A stretch of 64,000 nt of DNA from Thermoanaerobaculia bacterium (GCA_036399915.1 DASWME010000127.1:14305-78304); one strand, 5' to 3'; positions 38,714-48,925 are shown, numbered from the stretch's first letter. A program made the numbers and translations. The notes: a model not told the origin generated them from the letters alone.

Positions 38714-39385
38714 TCACCATAATAAAGGTGACCCCGGAAGGACATCCATTTCAGCTCGGTCGCAAGGACCAGCGATGCCGGACGGCCTCACTGGCACGAA
38801 TAGCCGTAGCCGGAGCAGCAGGCCGTTCCGGTGCAGGAGGTCGTGATCATATTCCGCTGGTCGCGGGAGTAGTCGTTGTTCCTGGCTTCCAGGGCGCCGG
38901 GCTCGCGCAGCTCGTCGGCGCGGCGACTCGATCTGCTCGGGCACGATGTTGGTGGAGGTGTCCGTCTTGTAGACGTCCACCAGGGGGACCGTGGTACTGA
39001 CCGTGATCGTCTCGGTCACCGCAGGGCTCAGCGTGGCGCGCACCTGGACCGTCTGGCCCACCCGCAGCGCGATGCCGTCCTGGCTGACGGGCGAGAACCC
39101 CTGCAGGTCGAACTCGGCCTTGTAGGCGCCGGGCGGCAGCGCCGGCAGGGTCGCCGTGCCCTGCTCGCCGGTCACCTCGGTGCGGGTCAGACCCGTCTCC
39201 GTGTTCTGCAGCGTCACCGTGACCCCGGGTAGGGGCACGCCGTCGGTGCCGGTGACCAGGACCTCGACGCTCGCGGTGCTGACCTGGGCGGCGAGGCGCC
39301 CCGTTCCCACGATGGTCATGACGAGAGCAAGCGCCAGCGCGAGAAAGGCGGCCCGGCCGCGCGACTGAAGCTCCTTCTTGCTCAT
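38714..39385 (-). pseudogene. N-terminal carboxypeptidase-regulatory-like domain of a TonB-dependent-receptor-type protein. It is truncated or frameshifted after about 150 aa.
   Basis: Signal peptide plus QVSTASVEVLVTGTDGVPLPGVTVTLQNTETGLTRTEVTGEQGTATLPALPPGAYKAEFDLQGFSPV... matches the N-terminal domain of acidobacterial TonB receptors. No plug or barrel follows, and after IVPEQIES the frame turns into R/A/P junk. The start overlaps the TetR stop (ATGA). Confidence 0.45.
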
Positions 39386-40065
39386 GATTCTCTCCTCGCG
39401 TCCACAGGGGACGCCGACAATCCATGACTCTGTTCATCCCGCGGATCGAGGCCGCGGCGCAGGATCTTCGCGAACTCGTGGACCGCCTGGCGCGAGTCCA
39501 GGCCGAAGTGCATGGGCACGCCGAAACACTTCTCGACGGTGAAGAAATAGAAGAACCAGCGGTTGGCGAGCATCACGCCCACCAGGGGGTCCACCTCGCC
39601 CAGCTCGCCCGCCTCCTGGCGCGCCTTGAGGCTCTCGGAGCAGGCGGCGGCGAAGCGGTCCGCCATCCGCTGGTAGAAGGCCCGGATGTGCTTGCCCTTG
39701 AACTCGATGACGTCGATGTAGATAAGCAGGATGTGGGCGGAGTTCTCGGCGACGACCTGCTCGATGGCGGCGGCCATCTCCTCCAGGTCTTCCGGGAAAC
39801 GGGCGCGGCTGAAGATCCTGTTGAGCGGCAGCTCCGGATCGAGCAGCACCTCCCAGTACTGGTCGATCAGGCGCTGGAAGATCTCCTCCTTGCCGCCGAA
39901 GTGGTGGTAGAGGTTGCCCACCGAGAGCCCCGACCGCCGGGCGATCTGCCGCATGGTGGTGGCCCGGAAGCCCTGCCGGGAAAACAGCGACAGCGCCGCC
40001 TTCAGGACCTTGCGCGTCGAGGCGCCGGACTTGTCCGCCTGGGTCTTGCGTCTCGGCATGTCCAT
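39382..40065 (-). CDS. TetR/AcrR family transcriptional regulator.
   Basis: HTH STRKVLKAALSLFSRQGFRATTMRQIARRSGLSVGNLYHHF. Start at Met MDMPRRK. Confidence 0.85.
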   Translation of the reverse strand: MDMPRRKTQADKSGASTRKVLKAALSLFSRQGFRATTMRQIARRSGLSVGNLYHHFGGKEEIFQRLIDQYWEVLLDPELPLNRIFSRARFPEDLEEMAAAIEQVVAENSAHILLIYIDVIEFKGKHIRAFYQRMADRFAAACSESLKARQEAGELGEVDPLVGVMLANRWFFYFFTVEKCFGVPMHFGLDSRQAVHEFAKILRRGLDPRDEQSHGLSASPVDARRES

Positions 40066-40302
40066 CCCCAAAACAGAACGACTGTTTACAGAACGTCTGT
40101 TCGGTTTTCGGATGCTAAGACCCAAGACGGGAGAATGTCAAGGGTTGGCGGGCTCCCGCGCTCGATCGACCGCGCCTCGGATTTCGTGTCAGGGTCACGC
40201 TTCCCTTGCCAGCCGGCACCTATAGCCTGGACGGCAAAACTGCAATTGCTGGTGGTAAGAATCTTCGCAGAATTTCACTTTTCCCTTCAAGGAGAAATCC
40301 GT

Positions 40303-43300
40303 ATGCGCCGGACGTTCCCAGGCAAGAGGTCCTTCGTGCTCACCATCGCGGCCGCCTCGCTGGCGGTGCTCGCGCTCGCTCACGGGGCGGCCGCAGCCCC
40401 GGCAGGAAGATCGGAGACGGCCGGCAACTACGACGCGCGGGTGATGGGAGGGCGGGGCCTGGGCGAAGTCCTCGCGGAGAGCTTCGCGGTGCCGCTGAAG
40501 GGCGCGCCCACCCGGACGCAGCTCGCCGGACAGATCAAGACCATGCGGCGGGCGCTCGAGCGCCTGCAGAAGACCGCCCCCGGGGCTTCCGCCCGCTTCT
40601 CGCCGATCACCGCGGCCCCCGAAATGGTGTCGGGCGACCGGGCGCCGCTCTCCGCTCCGGCTTCCGGCCGCCTGGGGATCGACATCGTGCGCGACTTCCT
40701 GCGCGCCAACAGTGCCCTCTATGGGCTGACCGGGGCCGACGTCGACGCGCTGCACTTCCTCGGCGAGAGCGTCAGCTCGAAGAGCGGTCTGCGCATGGTG
40801 CGGGTCGAGCAACGTCTCAACGGCCTGCCCGTGTTCGAGAGCGAGACGCGGTTCATCCTCGACCGTGAGGGCCGGGTCTGGCGCTCGCTGGGTCTCCTGG
40901 TGCCGTCGGGAGCCACGGCCCCCGTGCCTCCCCGGCAGCCGCAGGTCTCCGCTCCGGAAGCCCTGGCGCGGGCCATGAGCTCCGTGGGCATCGATCTCGA
41001 CGTTTCCCGCATGCGGAGCGAGACCAAGAGCGCCGCGCCCGCCGAGGACCGGATCGTGGTCCGCGACGAGCGGATCGCCGGCGAGGTGAGGAGCGATCTC
41101 GTCTACTTCCCGGTGGCGCCCGGCCGATTGGTGCCCGCCTGGAGGCAGATCGCGTTCACGGTCGGCGATGACGACTGGTTCACGCTGGTGGACGCAGCGA
41201 CCGGCGTCGTCCTCTGGCGCAAGGATGTCCGCGAGCACGTCTCGACCCAGCAGGCGCGCTTCAGCGTCTACGTCCAGGGCGACGGCGTCACGCCGGCGGA
41301 CAGTCCGGCGCCGCACTCTCCCACCACCGTGACGCCGGGCGCGGGAACGCAGTTCCCGGGGATCGCCCGCGCCATCGTGGACATGTCGGCCGCCCAGGAC
41401 ATCACCGCCAGCCCCGACGGCTGGATCCCGGACGGCGGCACCACCACGACCGGCAACAACGTCGACGCCTGCGTCGACCGCATCGTCACTCCCGTGGCCA
41501 CGGAGAGGAACGTCTGCGACATCGGCACGATCGACAACAACGGGCGGCCGGTGGGCAACCCGGACGCCAACGGCAAGAATCGCGACTTCCTGGGCGCCAC
41601 CCCGCGCGACTTCAGCTACTCGCCGGCGCCGTTGGGGGGCAACCCGAACGCCGGGGACGAACCCACCGGCACGGGCACGACGCAGGTCAACTTCCGGCGC
41701 GGCAGCGTCACCCAGGCCTTCTACGTCGCCAACTGGTATCACGACCGGCTCTTCAACCTCGGCTTCGACGAGGCCGCCGGCAACTTCCAGAACACCAACT
41801 TCAGCGGCATGGGCGTGGGGAACGACCGCCTCCGGGTCGACGTCCAGGACGGTCAGGGGCAGAACGTCCCCAGCTTCTCGACGCCTCCGGACGGGGCTTC
41901 CGGCCGCCTGACCCTGCACCGCTTCATCGAACCGGTCCCGGACCGCGACAGCGCCCTCGATGCCGACATCATCATCCACGAGCTGACCCACGGCACCACC
42001 AACCGGCTGATCGGCAACGCCGGCGGGCTCACCTGGAGCGTCGGCCGCGCCCTGGGCGAGGGCTGGAGCGACTTCTACGCCCTCGCCCTGCTCAACAACA
42101 CCAATGCCGACGACCCCGACGCCAACTACGCCTTCGGGGCCTACACCAAGTACCAGAGCAACCATCTCACCGACAACTATCTCTACGGCCCGCGCCGCTA
42201 TCCCTACTCGACGGACAACACGGTCAACCCCCTGACCTGGGCGGACACCGACGACGTCACCGCGGACATCTCCGGCGGCATCGCCCCCAGCCCCCTGGGA
42301 GGCTCGATCAACGGCGGCCTCGACATCTTCAACGCCGGCGAGGTCTGGGCCCTATCGCTGTGGGAGGTGAGGAGCCGCATCATTGCCGACCCTGCGGGAG
42401 CCAACGGCGACGTGCCCACCGGCAACGCCACCATGCTCCAGCTCGTCACCGACGCGCTCAAAATGACTCCCTCCCACCCCAGCTTCACCGACGCCCGCGA
42501 CGCCCTGATCCTCGCCGACTGCGCCACCAACGGCTGCGCCAACGAGCGCTCGATCTGGGAAGGCTTCGCCGACCGCGGTCTGGGCTACGGCGCCGTCGCT
42601 CCCCTCGGCCAGGTGGGCTTCCTCAATATCGGCCACATGAGCCTCGGCGAGTCCTTCTCGCTTCCCCATCTCGACGTCGCCGCCAGCACGGCGGATGACG
42701 TCCTGGGCAACAAGAACGGTGCGATCGATCCCGGCGAGATCATCCGGGTTGCGGTCCAGTTGGCCAACCCCTGGCGCAATCCTGCTTACGCCGTGCAGAA
42801 AGCCAAAGCTACCCTGACCTCCTCGACGCTGGGAGTGACGATCCTCGACCGCGTCGCCACCTACCGCGCCCTCCCCGGCCAGGACCTCGCCGCGACCAAC
42901 GGGTTCCTGTTCAAGGTCTCGACCGGCGCCGTCTGCGGTCAGTCGCTGAAGTTCACCCTCACCACCGAGAGCTCGCTCGGCACCGCCACGGCCGATTTCA
43001 CCCTGCGCGTGGGCGCCCCTGCGGGCACCGGCGCGCCGGTAATCTTCACGCGGACGATCTCTCCCGGCCTGGCCATCCCCGACGGCGACCGGCGCGGCGT
43101 CGTCGACACCTTGACGGTCACCGACGACCTCGAGATCGCCGACCTCGACTTCCGGGTGGACGACCTCCAGCACACCTTCACCGGCGATCTCACCGTGCTC
43201 CTGAAAGCCCCCAACGGCTACGGCACCGACCTCATCTGGATGCGCGAGGCCGGCTTGCTGGGCGGCGGCGACGGCGACAACTTCATCGACCCGGTGATCG

Positions 43301-43596
43301 ATGACGAGTCGAGAAACGACCTCAACCAGTCGTCGGATACCGACGCACCCTACACCGGCCATTGGGCGCCAGCCTTCAACTCCCAGATCTGGCGGCTGTT
43401 CGCCAGCCCGGCGATCTTCCCCGACCCCGTCGGCCAGCTCTCACGTCTTGACGGCACGAATACCCAGGGGCCCTGGAAAGTCCTGGTCGCCGACATCTTC
43501 GGCCCCGAAACCGGCACGCTCAACTCATGGTCCCTGATCGTGACCCCGACGGCTTTCACCTGCAAGGCCTTCGCGCCGGGCGCCGACCAGCGATGA
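40303..43596 (+). CDS. Secreted M36 (fungalysin) family zinc metalloprotease with an N-terminal propeptide and a C-terminal proprotein-convertase P-domain (about 1098 aa).
   Basis: An AAGGAGA ribosome-binding site lies 8 nt upstream of ATG 40303. Signal peptide MRRTFPGKRSFVLTIAAASLAVLALAHGAAAAP. Zinc motif IIIHELTHGTTNR with a downstream EGWSD, and a C-terminal P-domain-like region. The 1390-aa track ORF has an artefactual 5' extension. Confidence 0.85.
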   Translation: MRRTFPGKRSFVLTIAAASLAVLALAHGAAAAPAGRSETAGNYDARVMGGRGLGEVLAESFAVPLKGAPTRTQLAGQIKTMRRALERLQKTAPGASARFSPITAAPEMVSGDRAPLSAPASGRLGIDIVRDFLRANSALYGLTGADVDALHFLGESVSSKSGLRMVRVEQRLNGLPVFESETRFILDREGRVWRSLGLLVPSGATAPVPPRQPQVSAPEALARAMSSVGIDLDVSRMRSETKSAAPAEDRIVVRDERIAGEVRSDLVYFPVAPGRLVPAWRQIAFTVGDDDWFTLVDAATGVVLWRKDVREHVSTQQARFSVYVQGDGVTPADSPAPHSPTTVTPGAGTQFPGIARAIVDMSAAQDITASPDGWIPDGGTTTTGNNVDACVDRIVTPVATERNVCDIGTIDNNGRPVGNPDANGKNRDFLGATPRDFSYSPAPLGGNPNAGDEPTGTGTTQVNFRRGSVTQAFYVANWYHDRLFNLGFDEAAGNFQNTNFSGMGVGNDRLRVDVQDGQGQNVPSFSTPPDGASGRLTLHRFIEPVPDRDSALDADIIIHELTHGTTNRLIGNAGGLTWSVGRALGEGWSDFYALALLNNTNADDPDANYAFGAYTKYQSNHLTDNYLYGPRRYPYSTDNTVNPLTWADTDDVTADISGGIAPSPLGGSINGGLDIFNAGEVWALSLWEVRSRIIADPAGANGDVPTGNATMLQLVTDALKMTPSHPSFTDARDALILADCATNGCANERSIWEGFADRGLGYGAVAPLGQVGFLNIGHMSLGESFSLPHLDVAASTADDVLGNKNGAIDPGEIIRVAVQLANPWRNPAYAVQKAKATLTSSTLGVTILDRVATYRALPGQDLAATNGFLFKVSTGAVCGQSLKFTLTTESSLGTATADFTLRVGAPAGTGAPVIFTRTISPGLAIPDGDRRGVVDTLTVTDDLEIADLDFRVDDLQHTFTGDLTVLLKAPNGYGTDLIWMREAGLLGGGDGDNFIDPVIDDESRNDLNQSSDTDAPYTGHWAPAFNSQIWRLFASPAIFPDPVGQLSRLDGTNTQGPWKVLVADIFGPETGTLNSWSLIVTPTAFTCKAFAPGADQR

Positions 43597-43683
43597 GTCG
43601 TCCGACCCAACGAGAGGCTCGCTTCAGCGTCCAGTGGGCACCATTACTGACGTATGCAGTTGCTATCAGAAAGGAGTAGAAGC

Positions 43684-44031
43684 ATGAAGAGAACTGTCCT
43701 GCTGGGTGCCCTGCTGGTGGCCGTCCTTGCCTGTAGCTTGGCGCTCTCCACCCCCACACCCCTCCATGCTCTCCGGTGCTGCGACTACGGCGGTTACAGC
43801 ACCTCGCAGCACTGGGTGATGAAGCCCACGTGCTCAGAGGCCCAGTCGGCCTTCCGGGCTGAAGCACTGCCGGAGGCGCAGGCCTTCTGTAACCCCGACT
43901 TCGCCTGCGCCATCACGATCCCTGGCTGCTACACGTTCACCGATGAAAACGGCGTACTATGGTACGTGGTGGACGGATGGATGTACTTCGGCTGCACGTA
44001 TTACTGCGAGCGCGAACCGTATCTGCAGTAG
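43684..44031 (+). CDS. Small secreted cysteine-rich protein (eight Cys in about 90 mature aa), paralogue A.
   Basis: AAAGGAG ribosome-binding site. Signal peptide MKRTVLLGALLVAVLACSLALSTP. Conserved pattern CCDYGGYSTSQHWVM..TCSEAQSAFR...IPGCY...VVDGWMYFGC..YC. Confidence 0.65.
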   Translation: MKRTVLLGALLVAVLACSLALSTPTPLHALRCCDYGGYSTSQHWVMKPTCSEAQSAFRAEALPEAQAFCNPDFACAITIPGCYTFTDENGVLWYVVDGWMYFGCTYYCEREPYLQ

Positions 44032-44054
44032 CCCTGCAGAGCTGAGGAGCCCCT

Positions 44055-44100
44055 GGGACGCCCCGCTTCGTTGAGCAGCGCGGGCGTCCCCCGCCGGGGC
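44055..44100. terminator. Bidirectional terminator hairpin between convergent genes.
   Basis: Hairpin GGGACGCCCCGC-ttcgttgagca-GCGGGCGTCCC. Confidence 0.55.
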
Positions 44101-44355
44101 TTACTGCTTCTCCGCCACCTTCTCCAGCTTCCGCGGCTTGGCCTTGCCAGGGACGACACCGTCGCCGATGCGGTTCTTGGCCGATACCTGGGCGGAGTAG
44201 TTGGCTTCCACCCGCTTGAGCTCGTCGCTCTTCAGGTGGCACCTCTTGTACTTCTTCCCGCTCCCGCACCAGCAGAGGTCGTTGCGGCCGAGCTCGGCCT
44301 GCGGCCCTCGGGGGCGGGAGGCGAACAGATTGCGAAACCAGCTTGCCAGGGACAC
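44101..44355 (-). CDS. SEC-C metal-binding motif protein (84 aa).
   Basis: Motif NDLCWCGSGKKYKRCH. Confidence 0.7.
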   Translation of the reverse strand: MSLASWFRNLFASRPRGPQAELGRNDLCWCGSGKKYKRCHLKSDELKRVEANYSAQVSAKNRIGDGVVPGKAKPRKLEKVAEKQ

Positions 44356-44415
44356 GACAATCTCCAGTCTTGAAAGGTTCGTTGTGGTAAGGACGCGAAC
44401 GGCCGGACGGTCGGG

Positions 44416-45021
44416 CTACGGCACCTTCAGCAGGTCGACCACCCGCTTGACGCCCGCGGTCTCCCGGGCCGCCCTCAGGGCCAGGGACTTGCGCTCCGGG
44501 TCCGGGAGCGTGCCGCGCAGGCTCACCACCCCCTCGGTCGCCTCGACCTCGAGGTCCAGGGCGTAGCGGCCGATCTCTCCCAACAGATTCTTGCCGACCC
44601 GCATTTCGAGGATCGCGTCGTCCACCTCGCGCTCAGTGTGGCCGACGGCCTTGCCCACGGCGGTGCTCTCGGGAGTCTCTTCGCGCGCGGAGAGCTGGTT
44701 GTCCACGCTCTGGACGCCCGGGACCGCCTTGGCGACCTCCTCGGCCAACTCCTGGGTCGAGCGCTTGTCGACCGCGCCGATCAGGCGGATCCGTCCCGCG
44801 CGCGCATCCACCGTCACCCCGAGCCCGTCATCGCCAAGCTTCTCCAGCAGGGCCATGCGGACGTCGGCCTCCAGCCGGGCGTCCACCACGTCCTGCTCCC
44901 GGATGGCCTCATCCTCCGCCTGCGAGCGGGGGGTAGGGACGGTTGAGGCGCAGGCGCCGGCAAAGAAGGCGAAAGCCAGTGCAGCAGTCAGGATTAGCGA
45001 AGAAATCTTCGTCGCTCTCAT
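44416..45021 (-). CDS. BON-domain (OsmY-like) periplasmic lipoprotein or secreted protein.
   Basis: Start MRATKISSLILTAALAFAFFAGACAS. Two BON-like segments (VDARAGRIRLIGAVDKRSTQELAEEVAKAVPGVQSV, LEVEATEGVVSLRGTLPDPERKSLALRAARETAGVKRV). Confidence 0.75.
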   Translation of the reverse strand: MRATKISSLILTAALAFAFFAGACASTVPTPRSQAEDEAIREQDVVDARLEADVRMALLEKLGDDGLGVTVDARAGRIRLIGAVDKRSTQELAEEVAKAVPGVQSVDNQLSAREETPESTAVGKAVGHTEREVDDAILEMRVGKNLLGEIGRYALDLEVEATEGVVSLRGTLPDPERKSLALRAARETAGVKRVVDLLKVP

Positions 45022-45131
45022 CAACGAGCCTCGATCCGTTCCGAAGACTACCATGGCCCGGGCACGACTCGCCGAGGCTCCGCACAAGCACATTGATTTA
45101 TGGAGGAAGGTTATAGAGAAAGGAGAAGACA

Positions 45132-45455
45132 ATGAACAGAACCGCTCGCCTAGGTGCTCTGCTGGTGGCTGTCCTCGCGTGCACGCTGGCGCTCTCGACG
45201 CCTAGACCGGCCTATACTTTCCAGTGCTGCGAAGGTTTCTACAGCACTAGCCAGTATTGGGTCATGGAGGCTACCTGCTCGGAGGCCCAGACGGCTTTCC
45301 GGGTTGCGGCGATGCCGGAGGCCGAGGCCAATTGCGGCGGCGGAGACGTCTGTGGGGTCTCGATTCCCGGCTGCTATGCCTCGGGCAACATGTGGGTGGT
45401 GGACGGGTTCATGTACCATGGCTGCATCGAGCGGTGCGGCCCGCCGCCGGTGTAG
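45132..45455 (+). CDS. Small secreted cysteine-rich protein, paralogue B of the protein at 43684..44031.
   Basis: AAAGGAGAAG ribosome-binding site. Signal peptide MNRTARLGALLVAVLACTLALSTP. The motifs CCEGFYSTSQYWVM..TCSEAQTAFR...IPGCY..VVDGFMYHGC..C are shared with paralogue A. Confidence 0.65.
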   Translation: MNRTARLGALLVAVLACTLALSTPRPAYTFQCCEGFYSTSQYWVMEATCSEAQTAFRVAAMPEAEANCGGGDVCGVSIPGCYASGNMWVVDGFMYHGCIERCGPPPV

Positions 45456-45483
45456 GCCCTCCCCCGTAGCGCGGGACCTGGAG

Positions 45484-45514
45484 AAAGCCTGCCTCCGAAG
45501 CGGGCTTTCTTTTC
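45484..45514 (+). terminator. Rho-independent terminator after paralogue B.
   Basis: Hairpin GAAAGCC...GGCTTTC followed by TTTT. Confidence 0.5.
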
Positions 45515-45523
45515 CCGCCGCCG

Positions 45524-46837
45524 TCAGGCTCCCGGCACCCAGCACACCACGGCCGTCCCCCCGCCCTCCCGGCGCTCGATGCGGAGGCGGCCGCCGTGGG
45601 CCTCGACGATCTCGCGGCAGAGCGGTAGGCCGAGGCCGGAGCCTCCCGGCTTCGAGGTATAGAAGGGCAGGAGCGCCTTCCGCATCACCTCGTCGGTCAT
45701 GCCGGCGCCACGGTCAAGAACGCGGAAGCGGACGCCGCCGTCGCCGAGGGCGTCCACGGCCAGCCTCACCTCCCCGGGCGGGCTTCCGGACTCGTGGGCG
45801 TTCTTGAGCAGGTTGATGAGGGCCTGCTGCATCTGGACCGGATCGAAGCGGCCGGGGAGAGTCGGCGGCTCTCCCTCCAGCTCGAAGGGGACGACCTGCC
45901 GCAGTCCGGCCAGGAAGCCGTCCCACTCCACCTCCCGCAGGTTCGGCTGCGGCAGGCGGGCGAAGCGGGCGTAGCCCTCCAGGAACTCCTTGAGGTGGCT
46001 GGAGCGCTCCTCGATGACGTCGAGGACCGAGGCGAGGCGGTCCGCGTGCTCGGGGCTCCCGGCCATCAGGCGCACGGAGCGGGCGAGCGAGGCGATGGGA
46101 GCGAGCGAGTTGTTGATCTCGTGCGAGAGGGTGCGGATGGCCCGTTTCCAGACGTCCACCTCCTGACGCCGCAGCTCGGGAGTGAGGCGCTTGACGAGAG
46201 TGAGGTCGTGCCGCCGGCCGTTCAGCTCGAAGGCGCGGCGGGCGAGGTGGAAGACCTCCTCCTCGCCGCCGCTCTCCAGGGAGAAGAGCGAGTCGCGCCC
46301 GCTCGCCAGCGCCTCGCGCAGCCCCTCCGGGCACTCCTCCAGGATCTCTCCGAACACCCGGCCTTCGAGGCGCCCGCGGGTGAAGAACACCTCCCGCGCC
46401 GCCCGGTTGGCGAAGACCACGCGGTCGCGTTCGTTGGTCAGCACGATGGCCATGGGGGTGGCCTCGAACACGGTCTGGAGCAGCATCTCCCGCTGGAGGA
46501 TGGCGCTGCGCTCGTCGCGCAGCACGTCGCCCACAGAGTTGTAGAGCCCCACCAGCTCGCCCAGCTCGTCCCCGCGGTCCACCGCCAGGTTCAGGCTGAA
46601 GTCGTGGTCGCGGAACCCCTGGACGCCGTCGCGCAGGGCCTGGAGCACCCGCGACGCCGGATGGAGGACCCGGTCGAGGATCCACCATCCCACCGGCAGG
46701 CCGAGGCAGACGGCGGCCAGGAGAACGGTCCAGGGGGAGGGAAACCAGTAGGCGGCCGCTACCGCGAAAGTGATCGCGGCGGCGAGCGCCGCGAGGAAGG
46801 CGAGGCGGACGCGGGTGGCAAAGCGGAGGGGCTTCAT
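45524..46837 (-). CDS. Sensor histidine kinase (TM, PAS-like, HisKA, HATPase).
   Basis: Start [26 protein letters not shown] overlaps the ntrC-like stop (ATGA). H-box LSHEINNSLAPI. N/G boxes LINLLKNAHES...DRGAGM...GGSGLGL. Confidence 0.85.
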   Translation of the reverse strand: MKPLRFATRVRLAFLAALAAAITFAVAAAYWFPSPWTVLLAAVCLGLPVGWWILDRVLHPASRVLQALRDGVQGFRDHDFSLNLAVDRGDELGELVGLYNSVGDVLRDERSAILQREMLLQTVFEATPMAIVLTNERDRVVFANRAAREVFFTRGRLEGRVFGEILEECPEGLREALASGRDSLFSLESGGEEEVFHLARRAFELNGRRHDLTLVKRLTPELRRQEVDVWKRAIRTLSHEINNSLAPIASLARSVRLMAGSPEHADRLASVLDVIEERSSHLKEFLEGYARFARLPQPNLREVEWDGFLAGLRQVVPFELEGEPPTLPGRFDPVQMQQALINLLKNAHESGSPPGEVRLAVDALGDGGVRFRVLDRGAGMTDEVMRKALLPFYTSKPGGSGLGLPLCREIVEAHGGRLRIERREGGGTAVVCWVPGA

Positions 46838-48240
46838 CCGCGCAGCCGCCGCTCGACGGCGAGGCCGTGCTTCTCCATCTTGCGGTAGAGCGCCTGGCGG
46901 GAGAGGCCGAGGGCCTCGGCGGCCTTGGAGACCACGCCGCCCGCCCCTTCCAGGGCGCGCTCGATGCGGACCCGCTCGGCCAGGCTGAGCCCGTCCGCCT
47001 CCGCGGCGAGGGCGGGACCGGCCGCGAACGGCGCGCTGCCGAGCCCGAGGTCCTCGGCGCGGATCGTATCCCCCGAAGCCACGAGGACGGCCCGTCGCAG
47101 GGTGTTCTCCAGCTCCCGCACGTTGCCTGGCCAGGGATAGCGGACGAGCCGCTCGCGGGCTTCCGGGGAGAGGCGCCAGACCGCCCCGGTGGGCGACGGC
47201 GAGAGGTCGCGCAGGAACCGCTCGGCGAGCGGGACCACGTCCTCCGGCCGCTCGGCGAGGGGCGGCACCTGCAGCTCGATGACGTTCAGCCGGTAGAAGA
47301 GGTCCTCGCGGAAGCGGCCGGCGGCGATCTCCCTGCGCAGGTCGGCGTTGGTGGCGCAGATCAGGCGCACGTCCACCCGGCGGGTCTCGCTGCTGCCGAG
47401 CCGTTCGAACTGCCCGCTCTGGAGCACGCGCAAGAGCTTCGCCTGCCCCGAGGCCGAGAGGTTGCCGATCTCGTCGAGGAAGAGCGTGCCGCCGTCCGCC
47501 GCCTCGAAGCGGCCGATCCGCCGGCGGGTGGCCCCGGTGTAGGCCCCCACCTCGACGCCGAACAGCTCGCTCTCCAGCAGCTCGTCCGGCAGCGCGCCGG
47601 CGTTCACGCGGACGAAGGGTCTGTCCTTGCGCCGCGAATTGGCCTGGACGATCTCCGCCAGCTTCTCCTTGCCCGCGCCGGAGGGACCGGTGATGAGCAC
47701 AGGCACGTCCCCGCGGGCCACCTGGAGGGCGAGGGTGACGACGGCGTGCATCTTCTCGCTCGCCCATACGGCGCCGCTGAGCTCGTGCCGCTCGGCCAGA
47801 TCCTCCCAGCTCCGCCGCGCCCGGCCGCGCAGCCGGGCGTTCTCGAGCTGCAGCTCGCGCAGCCGCAGGAGGTTGCGCACCGAGGCGAGGAGCTTCTCGT
47901 CGTCCCAGGGCTTGGCCAGGTAGTCGGCGGCCCCCTCCTTGACGAGCTGGACGGCGGTCTCGAGAGAGGTCCAGGCCGTGATCAGCAGCACCGGCAGGCC
48001 CGGGTCCCGCCGCTTGATCTCCCGGAACAACGCCACCCCCTCCTCGCCGGAGGTGGCTTCCGGGCTGAAGTTCATGTCCTGGACGACGACGCCGATCTCC
48101 TGGGGGCGATCGGCGTCCAGGGCCCGCAACGCCTCTCCGGGCGAGCGGGCGATGACACAGGGGGTCCCGCGGATCTCGAAGAGGACCTGGAGAGCCGTCA
48201 CCACGGCCGGCTGGTCTTCGACGATGAGGACCTTGAGCAT
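46834..48240 (-). CDS. Sigma-54-dependent response regulator (NtrC/Fis family).
   Basis: Receiver domain [13 protein letters not shown]...D. AAA+ region with Walker A GPSGAGKE and the GAYTGA variant of the GAFTGA motif. C-terminal Fis HTH. Confidence 0.9.
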
Positions 48241-48271
48241 GGGGTATTTATATACCCCCCCTGCCCGAACC

Positions 48272-48787
48272 CTACCGCCCGATCCTCTCCCGCAGGCGCT
48301 CCAGGGGGATCTCACCCCGCTTGCTCACGGGCACCGTGACCGCGCCCAAAACCGGGACGTCGAACTGGAAGTCCGCGTCCAGGTTGTAGTCGGGCCGCTC
48401 GCGCCCGCTGAAGCTCCGGATGACGCGGTAGACGTCCTCGTACTTGATGGTCACCGGCAGCTCGACGACGCTCTGGCCGTTGGCGGCGACCCGCGTCCGC
48501 TCGTTGCGCCGGCCGCTCAAGAGAGGCTCGCCGTTGAGGCGCAGGCGGTAGCCGATCTCGTCCAGCACGAGGGACACGGCGTTCGGGTTGTCCACCCGGA
48601 ACTGGAAGAGCAGATCGGCCCCGGTGAGGGTGGTGCCGAGGAGCTTGACGTCGGTCACATCCACCTCGGGCTGGACGATCCGGGCGAGGCCGCCCAACCC
48701 TGAGCAGGCGGCGAGGGCCAGGGCCGCGGAGAGCGCGACGGCGAGGATGCCGGCCGCGCGGAAGGATCGCTGAAGAGGTCGATTCAT
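48272..48787 (-). CDS. LEA_2 (late-embryogenesis-abundant type 2 / NDR1-HIN1-like) domain lipoprotein.
   Basis: Start MNRPLQRSFRAAGILAVALSAALALAACSG (lipobox). LEA14-like sequence VDVTDVKLLGTTLTGADLLFQFRVDNPN. It lies 31 bp upstream of the ntrC-like gene, consistent with an operon. Confidence 0.7.
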   Translation of the reverse strand: MNRPLQRSFRAAGILAVALSAALALAACSGLGGLARIVQPEVDVTDVKLLGTTLTGADLLFQFRVDNPNAVSLVLDEIGYRLRLNGEPLLSGRRNERTRVAANGQSVVELPVTIKYEDVYRVIRSFSGRERPDYNLDADFQFDVPVLGAVTVPVSKRGEIPLERLRERIGR

Positions 48788-48925
48788 GTCCGGCTCCTTT
48801 CCGGACCGCTCCAAGCGGCCCGCAGAGCTCTGGGAGCGCAAGATCCGTGCCGTTGGGTCGCACCGTTGCACGCGAGGCGTCCTGCCCTCTGCCGTCCTCC
48901 TAAGAGGACGGTCAGCGTGCGCCGT

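Follow-up and report, generated by a model that had tools for sequence, protein, structure and literature searches.

Small proteins that are exported by the Sec pathway and encoded close to a secreted zinc metalloprotease, in the same orientation, are familiar from the inhibitors AprI, Inh, and SmaPI (MEROPS family I38) and from the Streptomyces inhibitor SMPI (I36). The I38 inhibitors are eight-stranded beta-barrels and SMPI has a Greek-key fold. Conotoxins, defensins, fungal effectors, and hydrophobins represent another kind of small secreted protein, which combines a conserved signal peptide and a cysteine framework with variable loops and turnover in tandem arrays. To our knowledge, the combination of a fixed cysteine framework with a conserved signal peptide and tandem arrays is well known among toxins and effectors of eukaryotes and has seldom been described in bacteria. 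Here, we analyzed 64,000 nucleotides (nt) of DNA from a Thermoanaerobaculia bacterium (GCA_036399915.1 DASWME010000127.1:14305-78304; hereafter, the window), in which two small paralogous genes, small1 (43684-44031, + strand) and small2 (45132-45455, + strand), lie downstream of the gene for an M36 (fungalysin-type) zinc metalloprotease that is predicted to be secreted (40303-43596, + strand). The eight-cysteine family to which both belong is undescribed in searchable libraries and literature, and it is a bacterial variant of the cysteine-framework secreted multigene kind, possibly also of protease-inhibitor pairs. The I38/I36-like arrangement is seen in the window and in loci L001, L003, L008, and L016 (L-numbers denote loci compared with the window, and P-numbers denote family proteins). 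Yet the family has no sequence or fold similarity to I38 or I36, has a different predicted topology (b-b-alpha-b-b-b), is multi-copy, and mostly occurs without proteases.

The small1 gene encodes a protein of 115 amino acids (aa) that is predicted to be exported, with a mature part of ~86-93 aa, an isoelectric point (pI) of 4.3, and 19% aromatic residues. Its paralogue, small2 (107 aa, mature pI 4.2), has the same signal peptide and cysteine framework. The two proteins are 58% identical (BLASTP expectation value, E, of 3e-42). The earlier note on this DNA had read them as paralogues with a common signal peptide and a common ribosome-binding site (RBS) context, which held on closer analysis, although the identity of their DNA, given there as about 70%, is 67% (218/324). 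The RBS AAAGGAG precedes the ATG of small1, which starts 87 nt past the M36 stop codon on the same strand (previously given as 88 bp), and small2 shares this RBS context.

As anticipated, each small protein has eight cysteines after the signal peptide, and these align in register (C32, C33, C50, C69, C75, C82, C104, and C108) with the spacing CC-x16-C-x18-C-x5-C-x6-C-x21-C-x3-C. They probably lock the mature domain by four disulfides. Both the signal peptide and the eight invariant cysteines recur across 23 close and 42 wider sequences. All of the extracted members (29/29) are acidic (pI 4.1-5.2) and aromatic-rich. The residues conserved family-wide are solely cysteines, glycines, alanines, and aromatics at scaffold positions, with no conserved candidate catalytic residue among them. 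Within the M36-linked subfamily, the best conserved mature segment is the helix TC[SA]EAQ.AFR..ALPEAQA.C. A ninth cysteine, C17, falls within the signal peptide and is not a lipobox cysteine, because it is not conserved across homologues (V, F, or G takes its place in P0006, P0018, and P0020); a lipoprotein reading was rejected on this basis. The conserved small residues A20-x-S22 and A29 in the homologue alignment fit signal peptidase I. One array copy in L008 (7054-7395) has ten mature cysteines rather than eight, with CCTDCGY towards the N-terminus and FCC close to the seventh cysteine.

AlphaFold2 models were built with homologue alignments, independently for the two paralogues. The small1 model had a mean predicted local distance difference test (pLDDT) score of 85, with ten-residue blocks across residues 41-100 at 94-98, and a b-b-alpha-b-b-b topology. 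The small2 model (mean pLDDT of 86) had the identical topology. In both models, the pLDDT of the mature part exceeded 94. Both consist of an N-terminal beta-hairpin, a helix of ~20 residues bounded by two cysteines (C50 and C69), and three more strands. This agreement supports the proposal that the mature domain is structured. The earlier note had not recognized the family, and neither did the libraries: the small proteins had no match in Pfam, NCBIfam, PHROGs, or PADLOC, and the family profile reached a best E of 0.76 against PDB sequences. Foldseek searches of the PDB returned nothing significant (best E of 0.02 for small1, to dodecins, and 0.6 for small2), there was no match in the BFVD viral structure library, and no known metalloprotease inhibitor fold appeared in the top 50 Foldseek/PDB matches of either model. 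Literature searches found no publication on the eight-cysteine family.

Searching 5.8 billion proteins with small1 returned 22 clusters at ≥ 50% identity, while a profile search of 1.84 billion representatives returned 42 clusters at E ≤ 1e-3 and a second profile search returned 39. The framework of the wider family is C-x-C or CC followed by six single cysteines, often with WGxG added before the third cysteine and DG[YFW] before the seventh. Every named record is a metagenome-assembled genome of Thermoanaerobaculia or Acidobacteriota. The family is rare and, as far as named records show, lineage-restricted. For locus retrieval we used a narrower family alignment, which returned five metagenome loci. 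Two metagenome proteins, P0025 (342 aa) and P0026 (234 aa), have the family domain fused to other sequence, with a 260-aa N-terminal region in the former and a cysteine-rich C-terminal extension in the latter. Neither has a Pfam domain, and these fusions may be gene-call artefacts.

To place the small genes in their surroundings, we compared six M36 blocks (the window, L001, L003, L005, L007, and L008). The order TetR, M36, SEC-C, BON, histidine kinase, sigma54-activator response regulator, LEA_2, and helicase (Hrq1-like) is collinear in related genomes. Neighbour proteins in the related blocks are 75-95% identical to those of the window, and M36 is 75-84% identical in the five other blocks. 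Within this order the family occupies two sites, one between M36 and SEC-C (site A) and the other between BON and the histidine kinase (site B). The numbers of copies at sites A and B, respectively, are 1 and 1 in the window, 2 and 0 in L001, 1 and 0 in L003, 0 and at least 1 in L005, 0 and 6 in L007, and 3 and 0 in L008. Copy number therefore ranges from 0-3 at site A and from 0-6 at site B across the six blocks, and no copy adjoins M36 in L005 or L007. Since the whole block is collinear, adjacency to M36 is largely inherited synteny and carries little information.

A neighbour-joining tree resolved four old clades. The small1 gene grouped with copies from L003 and with the non-M36 copies of L002 and L006, and small2 grouped with copies from L007 and L005. 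Clade does not track slot, because copy A3 of L008 groups with copies B4 and B5 of L007. Given that the old clades are common to several genomes, the window genes are what remains of an ancient array with many copies and did not arise by a duplication private to this genome. The duplication had been supposed to be old, and it is: the synonymous divergence (dS) between small1 and small2 is ~1.0-1.1, and the two fall in different clades that each include members from other genomes.

Outside of the M36 blocks, close relatives were found beside an aconitase gene (L009), a gene for an AMP-binding enzyme (L006), and a SIR2-like gene (L002), all without M36. Distant members lie beside UbiD and penicillin amidase (L011), a VWA protein and a hybrid kinase (L014), an alpha/beta hydrolase (L015), and DUF72 and a methyltransferase (L019). 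The largest array, with eight tandem distant paralogues, is in L013 (7746-12107), between a sugar ATP-binding cassette (ABC) transporter locus (substrate-binding protein, permease, ATPase, and major facilitator superfamily genes) and a PIG-L gene, and has no protease nearby. L013 belongs to the same assembly as the window because its locus_tag prefix, VGG03, matches that of the window gene. Hence, a single Thermoanaerobaculia genome contains at least ten family copies (the window pair plus the eight in L013). A syntenic locus from another sample (L023:7521-8348) has two copies only. The leader conserved among the copies in L013 and L023 is of another kind, with a GC hairpin that immediately precedes the RBS. 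In L002, the DNA right after the family gene (771-1664 and downstream) is AT-rich and encodes the SIR2-like protein and PIN/PhD toxin-antitoxin genes; this stretch has the appearance of a defence or mobile island inserted in place of the usual neighbours.

One further context includes a protease. In L016 (2629-4355; also in L017), representing two samples, the gene for P0041 (126 aa) lies 84 nt upstream of, and on the same strand as, a gene for a 420-aa M12B reprolysin-like metalloprotease. P0041 in L016 is preceded by a Ser/Thr kinase-TPR gene. A metalloprotease thus adjoins the family in 2 of ~11 independent contexts (M36 here and M12B in L016/L017) and ~9 of 11 are without a protease, which is above casual expectation and far from a rule. 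None of the neighbourhoods examined contained effector, type VI secretion system (T6SS), or recombinase genes. The arrays of six to eight copies had no interleaved genes, and neither an immunity gene nor a dedicated exporter adjoined them.

Taken as stated in the earlier note, a specific link between the small proteins and M36 is not supported in view of the collinear block, the variable slots, the M36-free relatives, and the eight distant paralogues by an ABC transporter. The note had regarded the link as lost if the family proved widespread and never near proteases, or unstructured. Neither was found, yet the family occurs mostly without proteases.

The regulatory sequences of the small genes were also compared. 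A bipartite element, GGCTCG[CT]nT-N13-[GA][CT]AC, precedes the ATG at a constant spacing of 62-70 nt in 12 copies of the close subfamily. Its 12 matches in 264 kb (the window plus loci) were all upstream of family genes with none elsewhere, a specificity that is partly circular because the pattern was derived from these same sequences. Upstream of small1, the element reads GGCTCGCTT-N13-GCAC (43616-43641, + strand), the sole exact match in the window and a candidate promoter or operator. The small2 element (45066-45091, + strand) is degenerate, GACTCGCcg-N13-GCAC, with one mismatch, and stands in register with the other copies. The element is also present in the non-M36 loci L002 and L006, and it is absent from M36. 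That the spacer varies and the two boxes are kept speaks for a promoter or operator under selection, and the -35/-10-like geometry suggests a putative promoter for an alternative sigma factor. The element was rejected as a sigma54 promoter, as it combines a GG-to-GC spacing of 9 with a GC that varies among copies. No site resembling the sigma54 consensus (TGGCAC-N5-TTGC, with GG-N10-GC spacing) was found upstream of either small gene at up to two mismatches. With no upstream consensus and the wrong GG-GC spacing, control of the small genes by the adjacent NtrC-type regulator through sigma54 was likewise rejected. The element does not match the sigma70 consensus either, and there were no sigma70-type promoters on the + strand across 39300-45700. 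The leaders of the small genes contained no known RNA in Rfam and folded no better than shuffles.

Downstream, where small1 and SEC-C converge, a GC-rich hairpin (44049-44100) has a predicted folding energy of -38 kcal/mol (z of -2.2) and is probably a bidirectional terminator. The terminator-like hairpin after small2 (45469-45521), which is common to the convergent histidine kinase gene, has a 13-bp stem followed by UUUUCC and a folding energy of -32.4 kcal/mol (z of -3.75), and 0 of 200 shuffles were as stable. Most close copies come with an upstream element and a terminator of their own, which suggests separate regulation. Between M36 and small1 there is no terminator-like fold, and transcripts of M36 may therefore run on into small1.

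The small genes have also diverged faster than their surroundings. In orthologous blocks, their nonsynonymous divergence (dN) exceeds that of the genes around them by a factor of 2-3 (e.g., 0.15 versus 0.03-0.12 in L003). The signal peptide is better conserved than the mature part (63% versus 46-51%), and the same holds in the L013 array (77% versus 53-57%). Variation and indels cluster in three places: the loop that follows the helix, the hairpin formed by strands three and four, and the C-terminal tail.

For the whole picture, we tentatively favor, at somewhat less than an even chance, a birth-and-death family of acidic, disulfide-locked, non-enzymatic proteins that are exported and act as binders or inhibitors. 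Tandem arrays are expanded and lost in a few fixed intergenic slots, namely the pair flanking SEC-C/BON (0-3 and 0-6 copies) and the slot between the ABC transporter and PIG-L (2 or 8 copies), and the window pair descends from two ancient clades of one array. In the periplasm or exterior, the proteins would serve as protease-resistant binders that antagonize other proteins in the manner of inhibitors or immunity proteins, and arrays of paralogues would diversify binding specificity. Hydrolases, metalloproteases included, would be the leading candidate targets. Conservation restricted to the scaffold, acidity, and the absence of a partner gene together suggest non-enzymatic binding proteins. 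As far as gene order can tell, the position beside M36 looks mostly like inheritance, and not like an obligate protease-inhibitor pair.

Several observations weigh against this reading. The label of binder or inhibitor is one that we infer from scaffold type, charge, and the absence of conserved catalytic residues. At least one family copy is retained in 6/6 M36 blocks, and M12B, which is unrelated to M36, adjoins the distant member P0041; together, these leave room for a real link to proteases. The taxonomic range was read from named records, which are a minority. With regard to evolutionary rate, dN/dS of the small genes (0.3-0.6) is similar to that of M36 (0.27-0.41), and positive selection was not demonstrated, pairwise dN/dS being < 1 on average. 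The dS of the small genes is higher as well, which suggests that some comparisons are between paralogues. Raised dS and M36-like dN/dS imply fast turnover and relaxed constraint rather than positive selection.

Orphan immunity arrays of the Tli/Tsi type, directed against effectors that act in the periplasm, similarly consist of tandem, small, fast-evolving paralogues that bear signal peptides and vary in copy number between close relatives. They differ in that the eight-cysteine family has no effector, T6SS, or recombinase nearby and no similarity to immunity families in PADLOC or Pfam. A four-disulfide scaffold is also atypical for immunity proteins.

The small proteins could instead be cognate inhibitors for self-protection, which would bind prematurely active M36 (or M12B, in L016) in the periplasm. 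AprI/Inh protects serralysin producers this way. We consider this unlikely, although several observations favor it: small1 follows M36 at 87 nt in the same orientation and no terminator-like fold intervenes, copies also directly follow M36 in L001, L003, and L008, none of the six blocks lacks a copy, and the M12B adjacency (84 nt, same strand, two samples) is an independent case. A compact, disulfide-rich, acidic scaffold without catalytic residues would also suit the role, and it is in the M36-linked subfamily that the helix segment is best conserved. However, L005 and L007 have no copy adjoining M36, the small1-clade relatives in L002 and L006, and also the relative in L009, occur without M36, and ~9 of 11 contexts, including the eight-copy array of the same genome, are without a protease. 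Moreover, the small genes have an upstream element of their own that M36 does not share, they resemble neither the M36 pro-region nor known inhibitor folds, and collinearity of the whole block leaves little information in their adjacency. A bolder version would make the family a new disulfide-rich class of zinc-metalloprotease inhibitor, the first scaffold paired with both M36 and M12B, with arrays that neutralize own and foreign secreted proteases in the periplasm or beyond the cell. We hold this to be more doubtful still.

Less probable again is that the proteins are secreted antagonists, either bacteriocin-like toxins or effectors directed against eukaryotes, in the manner of conotoxins, defensins, or fungal effectors. 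The greater conservation of the signal peptide than of the mature part, the indel-bearing variable loops between fixed cysteines, the rapid change of copy number in tandem arrays, and a dN raised relative to neighbours are all in line with such a role. In contrast to cationic membrane-active peptides, every member is acidic (pI 4.1-5.2). Arrays of 6-8 copies have no interleaved immunity gene, exporter, or double-glycine leader, and mean dN/dS is < 1. Relative to the conotoxin, defensin, effector, and hydrophobin families as a whole, this family is bacterial and acidic. Particular comparisons fail as well. The cysteine-stabilized alpha-beta (CS-alpha-beta) and plant defensins have positive charge where the pI here is 4.1-5.2, and the helix, which is bounded by C50 and C69, has no CxxxC, so that the CxxxC/CxC defensin signature is missing. 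Hydrophobins follow the pattern C-CC-C-C-CC-C, whereas the pattern here is CC-C-C-C-C-C-C. Unlike class II bacteriocin loci, those of the family encode a Sec-type signal peptide, with no double-glycine leader, exporter, or immunity gene.

We give a smaller chance to structural, ligand-binding, or signalling proteins of the envelope or exterior, which might form a dodecin-like oligomer that binds a cofactor or metal, or act as a ligand sensed by the kinase in an envelope-stress or desiccation locus. Dodecins, including calcium dodecin, were the best fold matches, albeit non-significant. They resemble the models in having one helix on a small antiparallel sheet (beta-alpha-beta-beta, ~68 aa; PDB 3onr and 2ux9). 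The small1 model superposed on them over ~70-76 residues with a target-normalized TM-score of 0.45-0.5, at an E of 0.02 that is not significant. Root-mean-square deviations were 4.6-7.4 Å among the dodecin matches listed. Strong acidity, the neighbouring BON and LEA_2 envelope proteins and two-component system, and sensor kinases beside distant members in L014 and L016 would also be compatible with this role. However, the best E-values were only 0.02-0.6 for the two models, and small2 ranked dodecins lower (E ≥ 2.3). Dodecins are cytoplasmic flavin-binding dodecamers, while the eight-cysteine family has an additional N-terminal hairpin and C-terminal strand, eight cysteines, and predicted export. 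Furthermore, the small genes have no sigma54 promoter despite the neighbouring sigma54 activator, most contexts have no kinases, and large arrays of diverged paralogues would be unusual for a signalling ligand. Lastly, the earlier proposal of a prodomain-like chaperone was rejected because the family shows no homology to the pro-region of M36. When its profile was compared by hhalign with one of M36 residues 1-363, the probability was 2.3%, and the alignment covered only the signal peptides.

Whichever role applies, this is an uncharacterised family with a compact fold predicted at high confidence. One genome contains at least ten copies, and turnover between relatives is quick. If the family members inhibit hydrolases or proteases, they would offer a new stable inhibitor scaffold and a handle on extracellular proteolysis in the poorly studied Acidobacteriota. 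Otherwise, the family still points to fast-evolving biology outside the cytoplasm in an almost uncultured class. A demonstration that it inhibits M36 or M12 enzymes would make it much more valuable.

The remaining genes of the block are largely as first described. The M36 gene encodes 1097 aa (earlier counted as 1098) with a signal peptide, the HELTHG motif, and a C-terminal P-domain, as the earlier note had reported. Pfam matched Peptidase_M36 (PF02128) at residues 363-764 (E of 1.9e-84; 284 bits versus a cut-off of 23.3) and P_proprotein at residues 954-1079 (E of 1.1e-5). About 330 residues N-terminal of the catalytic domain are kept among orthologues, and the protein had no Pfam match to an FTP or PepSY propeptide domain at E ≤ 0.1. 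NCBIfam models of M36 proteases that depend on a sortase (myxosortase or rhombosortase) or on the type IX secretion system (T9SS) scored 257-296 bits against cut-offs of 885-1700, as the catalytic core alone aligns.

The TetR-family regulator gene that had been noted upstream of M36 is present in divergent orientation (39382-40065, - strand; Pfam TetR_N E of 2.9e-18). Its open reading frame reaches 40125, and the likely ATG is at 40065. A sigma70-like promoter of this gene, TTGACA-18-TAGCAT, lies at 40141-40112 (- strand), and two tandem ACAGAACGnCTGTT palindromes (~40075-40110) stand between that promoter and the likely ATG. By their sequence and position, the palindromes look like a candidate auto-operator of TetR, with M36 ~200 nt away. 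Downstream of TetR, a CarboxypepD_reg outer-membrane gene (38714-39385, - strand) is truncated in the window, where similarity to the 928-aa orthologue of L001 and L008 extends over residues 1-154 only and the sequence then runs out of frame. In L007, another deletion has taken away most of TetR.

Between small1 and small2, and convergent to small1, are the SEC-C and BON genes that the two small genes had been said to bracket, both now supported by Pfam. The SEC-C gene (44101-44355, - strand) encodes an 84-aa protein with a SEC-C zinc motif (E of 2.6e-11) that is syntenic in all M36 blocks; it is a neighbour and stands outside the eight-cysteine family. The BON gene (44416-45021, - strand) encodes an OsmY-like lipoprotein with two BON repeats (E of 9.2e-26), a likely start at MRATK, the lipobox FAGAC, and partial NCBIfam matches to OsmY and DolP.

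Beyond small2, Pfam identified a PAS histidine kinase (45524-46840, - strand), an NtrC-type response regulator that is a sigma54 activator (46834-48243, - strand), and, at the head of this string, a LEA_2 lipoprotein (48272-48790, - strand). The string is collinear in L001, L003, and L007. A sigma54-type site, CGGCACGGATCTTGC (48838-48852, - strand), lies ~50-60 nt upstream of the LEA_2 gene. The same 15-mer is found, identical and at the same place, in L003, where the flanks differ, and its retention amid differing flanks suggests an autoregulated sigma54 operon comprising LEA_2, the activator, and the kinase. At the other end of the region, a BlaI-type penicillinase repressor gene (36330-36725, - strand) is followed by a gene (34705-36333, - strand) for a sensor of the BlaR1 type, an M56 peptidase that ends in HEAT repeats.

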